Below, piece after piece: positions 17,553 to 47,166 of a stretch of DNA of 64,000 nucleotides. The notes beneath the pieces were generated by a model. It saw only the letters and a list, made by a program, of their open reading frames with translations, did not search any database and had not been told where the DNA came from. The stretch lies in assembly GCA_018260615.1 (NCBI GenBank), contig JAGWDQ010000044.1:20467-84466 (forward strand), written 5' to 3'. The stretch is from Candidatus Altarchaeum sp. Its GTDB lineage: Archaea > Altiarchaeota > Altiarchaeia > Altiarchaeales > Altiarchaeaceae. How positions within the stretch are numbered: position 1 is the stretch's first letter; each line of letters begins with the position of its first letter. Position numbers and translations under genes: made by a program.

Positions 17553-18794
17553 TTAAATTTTTCCGTTTTCCTTAAAACTGTAATATGTGTCGCCGATAAT
17601 AACATGGTCAATAACAGAAATTCCGATAATCTCGCCCGTCTTAACAAGGGTTTCCGTAATTTTAATATCATCTGTTGATGGTGTCGGATCATCAGAAGGA
17701 TGGTTATGGACCAAAACAATTGCATTTGCACCGTCCTTTATTGCATCTCTAAAAACCTCCCTCGGATGAATCAATGAAGCATTTAATATTCCGATAGAAA
17801 CAATTTTATCTGCAATTATCCGGTTTTTGGAATCAAGAAGAATAACCATAAAATACTCCTTCTTATTATCGGGAATTTTCTGGGAAGCGTACCCAAATAC
17901 CTCTTTTGCATATTTTATTTTTTTTAAAGATTTCGCTGCCAGATTACACCTTTTATTAAATTCAAACAATGCTTTGATTTGCATTGCTTTTGCCTCCCCG
18001 ATACCATTTATCTTGTGGTAGACCTTTATTTTTCCATTTTCCTTTTTTAAAATGTATTTATGAGTATCATCACAGGTAACCAAAGTTACATTCTTTTTTG
18101 CGTATATGTTTAGCTTACCTTCCTCTTCTTTTAAAAGATATTTGTATTTTTTGACACCGTTGAGTTCTAATGATACCATCTTTTTTGTTTTGTTATTTTC
18201 GGGCTTGCCCTGAAAATCTCCAAACGAAGTGAGGTGAAGTTTGAGAAAAATTGTATTTGTTCCCTTTGCAACAGTTATTGTTTCGTTATTGTCGTTTTTT
18301 TTGATTTCTGCATTTTCCACCCATTCAATTTTTAAGTCGTCCTTTAAAAATTTTACGAGTCCTATATTGTTTTCGGGAACATCATCCCAGCTAAACAAAT
18401 ACTTTTTTGCTTTATCAAATTTAAAAGTAAATGAGTTTTCTCCATTTTTAATAATTATTGTTTCACCATCGTCTTCTTTACTGATTTCTGCATTTTTCGC
18501 CCAGTCCATTTTTAGGTCATCCTCCATATATTTTAGAAGTATCCCGCTGTCATTTCCCGGAACATCATCCCAGCTAAAGAAATACACCTTGTGAAGTTCT
18601 TCAAACGACAAATCGCTTAAATTTCCAATTCCGTAAAATGAGATTAGACGATTGCACATATCAACAACATTTTCACCTTTGACTCCGTTTTGTAAGATAA
18701 TTGCAAGCAATTCCGCATCACTCAATGCAGAAGCGCCAAACTTCTTTAGCCGTTCTCTCGGACGATTTTCCGCAGGAATTTCTTTTATTTTCAT
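17553..18794 (-). CDS. radC: RadC (JAB domain) with a 192-aa in-frame insertion in the HhH motif
   Basis: PRERL, LSDAELLAI, HPREVF, HNHPSDDPTPS..D, DHVIIG; removing the insert restores EELHKINGIGEAKA. Confidence 0.93.
   Translation of the reverse strand: MKIKEIPAENRPRERLKKFGASALSDAELLAIILQNGVKGENVVDMCNRLISFYGIGNLSDLSFEELHKVYFFSWDDVPGNDSGILLKYMEDDLKMDWAKNAEISKEDDGETIIIKNGENSFTFKFDKAKKYLFSWDDVPENNIGLVKFLKDDLKIEWVENAEIKKNDNNETITVAKGTNTIFLKLHLTSFGDFQGKPENNKTKKMVSLELNGVKKYKYLLKEEEGKLNIYAKKNVTLVTCDDTHKYILKKENGKIKVYHKINGIGEAKAMQIKALFEFNKRCNLAAKSLKKIKYAKEVFGYASQKIPDNKKEYFMVILLDSKNRIIADKIVSIGILNASLIHPREVFRDAIKDGANAIVLVHNHPSDDPTPSTDDIKITETLVKTGEIIGISVIDHVIIGDTYYSFKENGKI
18102..18402 (-). mobile_element. 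Coding MITE-like element, nested copy
   Basis: TIR GTATTTGTTTAGC versus GTATATGTTTAGC (12/13); perfect 8-bp TSD ttttttgc at 18094-18101 and 18403-18410. Confidence 0.9.
18195..18236 (-). repeat. 42-bp REP module inserted in-frame in the nested element
   Basis: cacctcacttcgtttggagattttcagggcaagcccgaaaat matches pieces of the intergenic cluster at 37620-37710; removal gives KLNKTKK, like Lon copy KLNKTEK. Confidence 0.85.
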
Positions 18795-44562: not shown

Positions 44563-47166
44563 ATGAGCGAAACAGAAGAAGTAACAAATAAGGACAAAAG
44601 GTATTTATTTAGCTGGAAGGACATTCCGGGAAAAGACAGCGAGAAATTTCTGAAATTTTTGGAGAATGACCTGAAAATATTGTGGGCAAAGACAGCGGAA
44701 ATCAAAAAAAGCGATGATGGTAAAATCATATCTGTTACTGACAAATTAAATAATAAAAATTTAATTGAATTTAAATTTACTGAAAAAGAAGGCAAAGTAA
44801 CACTTAAAATTTCAGGAGGAAAGACCTGCAAATACCTTTTAAAAGAAGAAGGAGGCAAGACAAAGATATATAAATTGGGAAAAGATATTAAAGAATATCT
44901 GGACGATCTGGAAAAGATAATTACAGGTGATAATAAAAGTAAAGAAGGCAAAAAAGCAGATGAGACCGAAGAAAAGAAAGAGGGTAAGTATTTGTTTAAC
45001 TGGGATGATGTTCCGGGAGATAATACAGAATTCATAAAATTTTTAAAAGACGGACTAAAAATAGAGTGGGTGGAGAATGCTAAAATCGAAAAAAGTAAGA
45101 ATAAGGAAACAATAACTGTTACGAATAAAAACAAAAATTCAGAGTCAATTACTATCAAACTTAATAAAACAGAAAAGAAGGTAAGTTTAGAATACAATGG
45201 TGAAACACACGAATACATTTTAAAAGAAGAGAATGGCAGGTTAAACATATACGAATACACAATAAAAGCAAACATAGTAGAAAAGATTGAAGATATAAAT
45301 CCGGAGATTTTTGAGAAGTATGTAACAACAGCAGAAATTCCAATACCAAAAAAAACAATTGACCAGGTTATCGGGCAGGATAAGGCCGTTGAGATAATAA
45401 AAAATGCTGCTATCCAGAGAAGACACATAATGCTTATCGGTGATCCGGGAACCGGAAAATCAATGCTTGCCAAAGCAATGGCGGAATTACTTCCCGTTGA
45501 AGAATTAATGGATGTTCTTTCCGGCAGAAATTTTGAAGATGAAAATAATCCGAAAATAAAGGTTGTTAAGACGGGTGAAGGAAAAGAAATTGTTAAAAAA
45601 TCTTCCGAAGGCACACAGGCATCCTCTTCAGGAGAAAGCAAAACATTCCTTTATATTGCTGTTTTCTTTATTATTCCTCTGGCAATTTATTTTTATGCGA
45701 TAACTCATTATATTCAGATTGATTCAACTATTATTTTTGCACCGATGCTCGTCGGAATGTTTTTACTGCTGTTTCAGGGAATGAATTTCAGGCAAATGAT
45801 GGGCGTACCAACCCACGGAAATGTGCCAAAGATAATTGTTGACAACTCAAACAAAAAACAGGTGCCTTTTTTTGACGCAACTGGTTCGCATGCAGGTGCA
45901 TTGCTTGGTGATGTCAAGCACGATCCATTGCAATCAGGGGGCTTGGGGACGCCTCCGCATTTAAGGGTTATGGCAGGAATGATACATAAGTCCCATAAAG
46001 GGGTACTTTACATTGATGAAATTTCAACATTAGGAAAGTCGCAGATGGATTTACTTACCGCCATGCAGGAAAAACAACTTTCAATAACAGGGAGAAGTGA
46101 AATGAGCAGCGGTGCAATGGTGATGAGTGATCCTGTTCCGTGTGATTTTATATTAGTTGCCGCAGGAAATTTAGTGGATATGGAGCACATGCATCCTGCA
46201 TTAAGGTCCAGAATAAGGGGCTACGGTTATGAAATTTATTTGGATAATACAATGCCTGATACAACAGACAACAGAAGAAAATTAGTCAGATTTGTTACTC
46301 AGGAGGTAATAAAAGACGGAAAAATTCCTCATTTTACAAAAGAAGCGGTTGATGTAATAATCAGAGAAGCGGAAAGAAGAGCGGGAATGAAAGGAAAATT
46401 AACATTGATTTTCAGGGAACTTGGAGGACTGATAAGAGCATCCGGGGACCTGGCGGTAAAAAGAAAACATAAATTTGTAGATGCAAATGATGTAATGGAT
46501 GCAAAAAAAATAGCGAGAACACTTGAAGGGCAAATCGGTGATATTTACTTAGATAAGCGTAAAGAATACGAAGTAATTCTGACGGAAGGTGTTAGTGTCG
46601 GCAGGGTAAACGGATTAGCTGTTTTCGGTGATGTCGGAACGGTTTTACCGATTGTTGCCGAGGTTTCACCGGCGTCAAGTGAAGGAAGAGGACAAATAAT
46701 AGCAACGGGAAAGCTGGGAGAAATCGCGAAGGAGGCAATAACAAATGTATCTGCAATTATTAAAAATTTTATGGGAAAGGAAATTTCAAACTACGATATT
46801 CATGTACAATTCCTGCAAACTTACGAAGGTGTTGAAGGTGATTCCGCATCCATTGCCGTAGCAATAGCAATGATATCCGCACTTGAAGATGTCGGAATAT
46901 CCCAGGAGGTTGCAATAACCGGCTCGCTTACGGTGAGAGGAGAAGTTCTGCCTGTCGGAGGAGTAACACAAAAGATTGAGGCGGCAATAGAAGCGGGACT
47001 TAAAAAAGCCATAATTCCAAAGAGCAATGAGAAGGATGTGCTGTTAGAAAAACGATACGAGGGAAAAATTGAAATTATTCCTGTCACAACAATTATTGAG
47101 GCAATTAAGTACGCATTTAAGGACAGCAGTAAGATAACGGAGAAAATGAATAAAATGGTAAAGTAA
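44563..47166 (+). CDS. lonB: Archaeal LonB protease with two N-terminal copies of the 86-aa mobile module
   Basis: [14 protein letters not shown], two TM helices, IDEI, EGDSAS..., GGV..K Ser-Lys dyad. Confidence 0.95.
44601..44871 (+). mobile_element. Coding MITE-like element, Lon copy 1 (degenerate ends)
   Basis: Starts GTATTTATTTAGC; encodes [10 protein letters not shown]...KTKIY; no TSD visible. Confidence 0.7.
44988..45252 (+). mobile_element. Coding MITE-like element, Lon copy 2
   Basis: TIR GTATTTGTTTAAC versus GTATATGTTTAAC (12/13); encodes [10 protein letters not shown]...RLNIY; no TSD visible. Confidence 0.8.

Follow-up and report, generated by a model that had tools for sequence, protein, structure and literature searches.

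A probable non-autonomous transposon that carries an 86-residue domain in frame in radC and other genes of Altiarchaeum

A nested insert in the radC gene

Our analysis revealed that the radC gene on a 64,000-nt stretch of contig JAGWDQ010000044.1 of Candidatus Altarchaeum sp. (the window, in which all coordinates are given unless a contig is named) is interrupted by two copies of a short repeat, one nested within the other. The repeat is very probably a MITE (miniature inverted-repeat transposable element), i.e. a non-autonomous DNA transposon, whose body is one open reading frame (ORF) without its own start or stop codon; we refer to it as the coding MITE and to the peptide it encodes as the unit. 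The genome holding the window (G000) was compared with its sister genomes G001-G003, together four genomes of the genus Altiarchaeum. All four assemblies are fragmented metagenome-assembled genomes (MAGs) with a completeness of 65-87%. The following features were found at the locus.

17553..18794, minus strand: radC host gene, from ORF and translation; 413 aa
18010..18017, minus strand: outer target-site duplication (TSD), downstream copy; CACAAGAT on the coding strand
18018..18585, minus strand: outer coding MITE; 568 bp, with 259 bp of its own sequence in the pieces 18018-18101 and 18411-18585 because the inner copy interrupts it
18094..18101, minus strand: inner TSD, downstream copy; GCAAAAAA
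18102..18402, minus strand: inner coding MITE; 301 bp, 100 aa, ends GTATTTGTTTAGC...GCTAAACATATAC, insertion specific to the G000 lineage
18195..18236, minus strand: 42-bp hairpin-repeat module, read in frame as HLTSFGDFQGKPEN within the inner unit; third nesting level
18403..18410, minus strand: inner TSD, upstream copy; GCAAAAAA, the pair being perfect
18586..18593, minus strand: outer TSD, upstream copy; CACAAGGT on the coding strand

Residues 3-69 of the encoded protein matched the Pfam family UPF0758_N, the helix-hairpin-helix (HhH) N-domain, at profile positions 1-67 of 77, and residues 296-411 matched the RadC JAB domain, in which the HNHPS..D motif is intact. Between these two domains lies the nested insert of 189 aa; residues 71-259 did not match any family in Pfam. 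Re-reading of the DNA, in which the inverted repeat was found again, showed the coordinates and strings of the original prediction, made from the letters of the window, to be exact to the base. The inner copy is indeed nested in the outer one between perfect 8-bp duplications, and its 14-nt arms (18102-18115 and 18389-18402) are 93% complementary. The outer flanks CACAAGGT and CACAAGAT match in 7/8 positions, and an identical pair was found in G001. As had been predicted, both copies measure 259 bp when nested material is subtracted (568-301-8 = 259 for the outer and 301-42 = 259 for the inner element), and each of them then encodes 86 aa. radC carries three nesting levels, every one of them in frame.

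Empty sites and the history of insertions

The radC genes of G001 and G002 (311-312 aa, 89-92% identical to radC of G000) contain the outer unit only, in uninterrupted form. At the site of the inner copy they show a single GCAAAAAAG where G000 has duplication, element and duplication, and across this site they read ...AAAGCAAAAAAG|AAGGTG..., which is one copy of the duplicated 8-mer, GCAAAAAA(G). The same 22 nt were found on a 3,979-nt contig of run X7, from an independent groundwater metagenome study, in which 18073 is joined to 18402. The original prediction had called beforehand for empty radC alleles with a single target copy; for the inner copy, G001, G002 and run X7 each provide one. The inner copy itself is present in runs X1 and X2, two samples of the probable source study. 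The outer site can be seen without an insert as well, in an insert-free radC paralogue that reads ...KELQK-IKGIG... at this position. A second insertion specific to G000 lies in a rhomboid gene, which encodes 339 aa including the unit in G000 and 248-261 aa without it in the orthologues of G001-G003 (81-85% identical).

Most copies in G000 are old. Those in the genes for LonB, TBP and an MBL-TPR protein are common to all four species, and the outer radC copy predates the duplication into radC1 and radC2, two paralogues that carry the unit at the same site between homologous flanks. One copy would have entered the HhH region prior to this duplication, and a second copy, with the 42-bp hairpin module already aboard, would have inserted into the first in the lineage of G000.

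G000:C96:28047-29338 (L003, L048, L050): radC2 paralogue; unit located at the homologous site, between CAAAAGGT and TACAAGAT

In radC2 of G000, a further non-coding repeat of ~330 bp has inserted within the unit's last codons and breaks the gene into two ORFs (188 aa and 163 aa); the orthologue in G003 contains stop codons, too.

Inverted repeats and target duplications

The set analysed comprises 58 distinct full-length copies, drawn from G000, from the three congeners and from 24 loci elsewhere among the archaea. The elements are 247-307 bp long with a TSD of 8 bp. The left terminal inverted repeat (TIR) reads GTAT(T)TGTTTAGC(T) over 13-14 nt, and the right end is its complement with a fixed mismatch at position 5. 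Lengths of 1 mod 3 are automatic for copies delimited by codons and are an independent observation only where duplications fix the copy ends.

When the 8 nt before 'G + unit' were compared with the 8 nt after the unit, at the best of 36 registers tried, 22 of the 58 copies agreed in at least 6/8 positions where 1.0 was expected (P about 1e-23), and 10/58 agreed in at least 7/8 positions where 0.12 was expected. Flank identity was at least 20-fold over that in composition-keeping controls. About nine of the cases with at least 7/8 identity are independent loci, from at least five lineages, and perfect 8-bp duplications flank the inner radC copy and L059. The insertion sites have no shared consensus.

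Complementarity between the terminal 13 nt averaged 8.6/13 over the 58 copies versus 3.4/13 for internal controls, and reached 10/13 or more in 36% of copies versus 0.03% of controls. The element ends are constrained as DNA beyond the protein that they encode, with rare synonymous codons keeping the inverted repeat. The codons that do so exceed genome usage 2.5- to 10-fold: TTG for Leu2 (35/48, genome 19%), AGC for Ser4 (25/28, genome 14.5%), CTA for Leu-4 (17/33, genome 5%), AAC for Asn-3 (28/35, genome 25%) and TAC for Tyr-1, the last Tyr (33/52, genome 26%). Furthermore, the host base directly 5' of the unit is G in 40/58 copies. Other genomic copies do bear the TIR/TSD signatures that the original prediction expected of them, and the boundaries of the unit coincide with the inverted repeats. 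Covariation of the TIRs at position 12 was considered and rejected, the counts being too mixed to claim it.

Host genes and reading frame

Two further copies in the window were confirmed at the N-terminus of LonB. Both are kept in all four genomes of the genus.

44563..47163, plus strand: LonB protease gene, the N-terminal extension of which carries two units; Pfam matches to Lon_C, LonB_AAA-LID and AAA
44601..44871, plus strand: LonB unit 1; old copy with no recognisable duplication
44988..45252, plus strand: LonB unit 2; duplication GAAGGCAA at 7/8 in G001 and G003, decayed in G000

The hosts are otherwise unrelated and include, besides the HhH region of RadC and LonB, TBP (two genes), the rhomboid protein, a PQQ-propeller kinase, the MBL-TPR protein, Cas3 and a DUF4411 protein. 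Pfam searches showed that the unit splits known domains, namely DEAD of Cas3 at residue 318/319, DUF4411 at profile position 116 and the HhH region of RadC. In Cas3 of G000 (L004, G000:C131) the insertion point lies directly behind position 71 of the DEAD profile. The sister genomes offer at best a cas3 homologue of 32% identity, too distant to judge by comparison whether Cas3 of G000 still works.

Nesting is not confined to radC. Among the top 150 proteins 13 further cases of a unit within a unit were found, at no fewer than eight different internal positions. The MBL-fold/TPR protein (L006, G000:C60:54838-55497) contains a compound array, conserved in G001-G003, that starts with two identical fragments of the unit's N-terminus (30 aa each, 90 bp apart) and continues with a full unit with an extra loop of 15 aa and a C-terminal unit fragment. 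The array looks like another nested insertion combined with tandem duplication. A frameshifted unit was also found within an IS4/IS5-type DDE transposase pseudogene of G003 (L103, G003:C145:1-1219), so the coding MITE has hit a transposase gene as well.

In all 58 copies (58/58) the sense frame alone is free of stop codons. Across the other genomes searched the frame is open at nearly every match, except for the copies in two pseudogenes of G003. G000 has 17 matches at 13 loci; an nhmmer search of its DNA returned the same 13 loci and no further copy, be it intergenic, antisense or decayed. Survivorship explains the pattern that all copies are in frame, given that old copies between genes would have decayed; and with only two young insertions, both in frame, the absence of young intergenic copies is unremarkable.

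A folded domain under purifying selection

The only open frame of the element is that of the 86-aa unit. AlphaFold2, given an alignment of 77 sequences, predicted for it a compact alpha+beta fold made up of one short strand, a pair of helices and a sheet of five to six strands, at a mean predicted local distance difference test (pLDDT) score of 95.6 and a predicted template-modelling (pTM) score of 0.85. Neither the 77 units nor the radC insert matched a family in Pfam-A 2025 or NCBIfam 20.0, and no sequence relative was found in the PDB. In structural searches the best hit of Foldseek against the PDB had an E value of 0.04 (frataxin/CyaY, template-modelling (TM) score 0.47), a wide VIA-align search gave a best Z of 5.0, and the ESM Atlas returned TM scores of at most 0.6 by shape and at most 0.87 by features. 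The closest resemblances of the model are to generic frataxin-like alpha+beta folds, among which no relative can be named, and the novelty of the fold is not thereby shown.

Ratios of non-synonymous to synonymous substitution rates (dN/dS) were low. The intact radC unit gave 0.14 (G001 versus G002) and the host part of radC 0.08-0.12, while LonB unit 1 gave 0.17-0.40, unit 2 0.21-0.41 and the Lon body 0.12-0.16. In the outer radC unit, which is split by the inner copy, dN is raised 4-5-fold. Structure prediction and dN/dS, two of the checks that the original prediction proposed, both point to a real folded domain under purifying selection. Nothing shows that the unit does more than fold harmlessly.

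Non-coding elements with the same ends

G000 contains a family of seven non-coding MITEs with ends GTATTTGTTTAGC...TCTAAACAATTAC, each flanked by perfect 8-bp duplications composed of A and T only (7/7). Their terminal 12-13 nt are those of the coding unit, and their lengths are free modulo 3.

L078-L084, non-coding MITEs: G000:C15:720-1030, C26:10330-10708, C37:3086-3343, C60:49913-50075
L078-L084, continued: G000:C60:63459-63595, C124:19294-19612, C130:22028-22396

These seven elements, the interiors of which are mosaics of hairpin modules, could be intergenic 'ecotypes' served by the same transposase as the coding unit. A Methanobacteriota MAG in which coding units are found as well contains a non-coding element of 188 bp, with a TIR of the coding-unit type (14 bp, perfect) and a perfect duplication. 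A whole element of the G000 family compared by BLAST with 61 genomes of the class matched in short mosaic pieces only, and metagenome contigs contained no exact copy of a 23-mer taken from the left end of the family.

The 42-bp module of the inner radC unit belongs to a family with at least 74 copies in G000 at no more than four mismatches, most of them intergenic. This hairpin repeat consists of the core CACCTCACTTCGTTCGGAGAT followed by a variable AT-rich hairpin, builds the interior of the larger non-coding MITEs and forms some tandem arrays with a spacing of 32-48 bp. The same 14-aa insert as in the inner radC unit occurs at the same site of the unit in an unrelated protein, P0019.

Hairpin-repeat examples: G000:C124:1490-1752, C15:4905-5119, C148:16272-16360

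Distribution

A profile search of 1.84 billion cluster representatives retrieved 1,977 proteins when the cutoff was E <= 1e-3 and 1,305 when it was E <= 1e-10; single proteins had as many as 12 matched stretches, some of them partial. The clusters span Altiarchaeales, Methanosarcinia, ANME-1 and an Asgard genome. All genomes of the genus Altiarchaeum (4/4) have 12-18 matches each; in the rest of the class the unit is found in 2/37 genomes. Named records with the unit come from Altiarchaeales, the anaerobic methanotrophic archaea ANME-1 and ANME-2, Methanoperedens, other Methanosarcinales, Methanotrichaceae and Methanophagales, and the unit was found in an Asgard genome, a Freyarchaeia chromosome. 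In the class of Methanoperedens 36/151 sampled species have it; one unit lies in a protein of ~478 aa in a genetically tractable Methanosarcina species. Viral contigs showed 29 pattern matches when scanned for the unit profile, and not one of these was confirmed.

In a rough tree the copies group mostly by lineage, with one ANME-1 copy inside the Altiarchaeales group. L055 (ANME-1 GoMg1, QBUL01000171.1) and L056 (Altiarchaeales WOR_SM1_SCG) share 82% DNA identity, a value that equals the closest non-orthologous pair within G000; this closeness could result from inter-phylum transfer or from a mis-binned contig. For the two young insertions no donor above 82% DNA identity was found, and orthologous units between these species are 81-92% identical.

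Search for a transposase

Inverted pairs of TIRs no more than 6 kb apart, searched for in G000-G003 with and without a TSD filter, yielded only chance-like matches with three mismatches. Matches to DDE_Tnp_IS1595, Transposase_mut, DDE_Tnp_1 and DDE_Tnp_IS66 in the same genomes had no matching ends beside them, and the neighbourhoods of IS1595, IS256, IS4/5 and IS66 transposases did not contain an element with coding-MITE ends. In five Methanosarcinia genomes the 13-mer of the unit ends occurs mostly at unit ends. Multicopy insertion sequence (IS) elements assemble poorly.

The original prediction had pointed to an IS that shares the ends of the element, and none was found in G000-G003 or the five Methanosarcinia genomes. 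Its hint at the IS66 family is weakly supported: an 8-bp TSD, GTAA/GTAT ends and IS66 remnants in sister genomes agree with it, whereas the TIR of the remnant differs. DDE_Tnp_IS66 had zero matches in G000, and remnants of the IS66 DDE domain are present in G002 and G003. An IS66-type remnant with stop codons in G002 (G002:C134, L124:752-2476) is bounded by perfect 12-bp inverted repeats GTAACTATTCAG, which agree with GTAATTGTTTAG in 9/12 positions; a 101-bp MITE with the same ends, 300 bp upstream of the remnant, links the GTAACTAYTCA MITE family of G000 to IS66. The family ends are GTAT... in the coding MITE and GTAT.../GTAA... in the non-coding family. An IS66-type enzyme is the leading candidate for the transposase, though a tentative one.

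Interpretation and alternatives

Seven independent lines of evidence strongly support mobility, namely empty sites, target duplications, ends constrained as DNA, a non-coding relative, nesting, the host sites and the reading frames. The element has the TIRs, the fixed-length TSD, the presence/absence polymorphism with an empty site, the small size and the multiple copies of a MITE, and no transposase gene inside. The original prediction of a non-autonomous transposon that became a protein domain spreading between genes is supported by the empty sites, the TIRs and TSDs, the fold and the selection on it.

We propose that the element would be moved by a transposase acting in trans. Insertion would duplicate 8 bp of the target, and since the element has a length of 3n+1, element and duplication together would add a multiple of three (3n). 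Where the element arrives in sense orientation and the target 8-mer starts at codon position 1, the frame of the host would be kept, and the host would gain a module of 86-100 residues, from Y-L-F-S-W-D-D-V-P through K-L-N-I-Y. Copies that arrive out of frame, in antisense orientation or where the host does not permit an insert would be purged, because the sense frame alone is stop-free. In-frame copies would be locked into their host genes, because only precise deletion is tolerated, and may persist for long as a harmless or mildly useful surface domain. On balance, though with clear reserve, we favour the fuller reading that the element is an obligately exonic transposon whose sole cargo is an autonomously folding domain, that its length (3n+1 with an 8-bp duplication) and fold are tuned so that hosts survive, and that it has moved within and between archaeal phyla, seeding ~2,000 protein clusters.

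Several observations weigh against the transposon reading. About half of the copies, including LonB unit 1, have no recognisable duplication, and in the rhomboid gene, a young insertion, the duplication is degenerate and the net insert is 87 codons instead of 88. The three genomes that bear radC are about equidistant (dS 0.21-0.24); the inner copy may have been lost from G001 and G002 by precise excision instead of gained in G000. No pair of copies at different loci exceeds 82% DNA identity, which gives no sign of present activity and points to no donor for the inner copy. A related autonomous element with the same ends (GTA(T/A)TTGTTTAG), as expected for a MITE, was found neither in G000-G003, MAGs that are fragmented and 65-87% complete, nor in the five Methanosarcinia genomes. 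Finally, that the unit is translated and that its fold matters is suggested by the selection on its sequence.

An alternative that we consider unlikely, though a real contender, accepts the transposon origin and holds that the element is now domesticated, the domain being kept because it gives its hosts a shared function, such as a common handle for binding, assembly or regulation, and not for mere harmlessness. The conservation of the LonB, TBP and MBL-TPR copies in all four species, dN/dS values well below 1 and some STAND-like proteins with up to 8-12 units speak for it, as does the raised dN of the split outer radC unit, which suggests that selection had preserved the intact fold. However, the hosts are functionally unrelated, the units are under weaker purifying selection than the host bodies (0.17-0.41 versus 0.12-0.16), selection against misfolding alone would give an equal signal, and no partner, motif or known fold was found.

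Very improbable, in our view, is an ordinary promiscuous domain spread by fusion, duplication and recombination, in which the repeats would be by-products of the conserved residues YLFSW and LNIY together with coding sequence rich in A. Such a domain would fit the in-frame position of all copies, the purifying selection, the confident fold, the many copies without a duplication and the failure to find a transposase. It does not account for an inverted repeat that is out of codon register, uses rare synonymous codons and extends to the G of the host codon in 40/58 copies, for flank identity far above that in composition-keeping controls, for non-coding elements that share ends and duplication length, or for nesting at varied positions and insertions inside conserved domains; the empty site with a single target copy largely refutes it.

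Removal of the insert after transcription or translation, in the manner of an archaeal bulge-helix-bulge intron or an intein, was raised in the original prediction, and the terminal inverted repeats could indeed pair in RNA and bring the ends together. It is hardly credible all the same: an insert that is spliced out would not need the sense frame that is open in 58/58 copies and in nearly all matches elsewhere (bar the two G003 pseudogenes), nor a dN/dS below 1. Moreover, the unit starts and ends with Tyr, whereas inteins begin with Cys/Ser and end in His-Asn with Cys/Ser/Thr next to it, and, judging by sequence, flanks that are direct repeats cannot pair into the outer helix that a bulge-helix-bulge motif has. 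Homing or gene conversion driven by a site-specific nuclease as the means of spread, to which the shared unit site of radC1 and radC2 and the 42-bp module at the same position in two different units might point, can practically be dismissed, as the insertion sites lack a consensus, duplications of a fixed length are a mark of transposition by staggered cuts, nesting is seen at many positions, and gene duplication after a single insertion explains the site shared by radC1 and radC2, the flanks of which are homologous.

Relation to known elements

The preferred reading, a non-autonomous transposon with a coding body, has its nearest counterpart in the Rickettsia palindromic elements (RPEs), described as 'selfish DNA in protein-coding genes', i.e. 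in-frame repeats in unrelated genes (PMC10969869). RPEs are about 100-150 bp long, form ~ten families, are restricted to Rickettsia and lie in ORFs in about half of the cases (PMC10969869). The likeness is one of behaviour only: both are small, have no transposase and are often found in frame in unrelated genes, to which they add a conserved peptide while the gene still functions. TIRs and TSDs are no hallmark of RPEs, whereas the coding MITE of 259-301 bp has TIRs of 13-14 nt and 8-bp TSDs, encodes an 86-aa domain that is predicted to fold by itself (pLDDT 95.6), has a nearly always open frame, nests in itself and occurs in several archaeal phyla.

Candidatus Altiarchaeum has the top MITE density among archaea (146 cMITEs/Mb), and ~89-90% of catalogued MITEs are intergenic and non-coding (PMC11602168). 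With conventional MITEs the element shares TIRs, a fixed TSD, small size, the lack of a transposase, multiple copies, nesting and presence/absence polymorphism. It differs in that the whole family is coding and intragenic, its interior is under selection at the protein level and its length is 3n+1. The IS66 family, with an 8-bp target duplication and ends starting with GTA(A/T), is a tentative lead, but no IS66 copy with a matching TIR was found in G000-G003. Like inteins and mini-inteins, the unit is an in-frame selfish insert at conserved sites of essential proteins that folds independently. Unlike inteins, it has no splicing residues, homing endonuclease or conserved site (units run from Y-L-F to N-I-Y and the next host residues vary, being H, A, K, E, I and others), is flanked by TIRs and TSDs at the DNA level and evidently stays in the mature protein. 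A full-text literature search did not find a description of the element or the domain. The element can be described as an RPE-like in-frame MITE that differs from both RPEs and MITEs in being obligately coding, in its folded 86-aa cargo, in its clean TIRs and TSDs, in its self-nesting and in its spread across phyla.

Implications

Insertion of a domain into the middle of a protein is usually put down to rare recombination. Here a transposon inserts a domain directly and repeatedly, and the scars are still readable in the DNA. The domain family is uncatalogued and, with ~2,000 clusters, a blank in current annotation; known genes of archaeal MAGs are inflated, split or disguised by its inserts. 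The copies also constitute a natural experiment on the sites of essential proteins that tolerate an insert of ~10 kDa (LonB, TBP, Cas3, RadC and rhomboid), and such a well-folded and insertion-tolerant unit could serve as a scaffold in protein engineering. The idea of 'selfish DNA inside coding genes' would be extended from Rickettsia to Archaea, with much clearer mechanics, and, if the reading is true, transposition would be a mechanism, both direct and general, by which domains are inserted into archaeal proteins.

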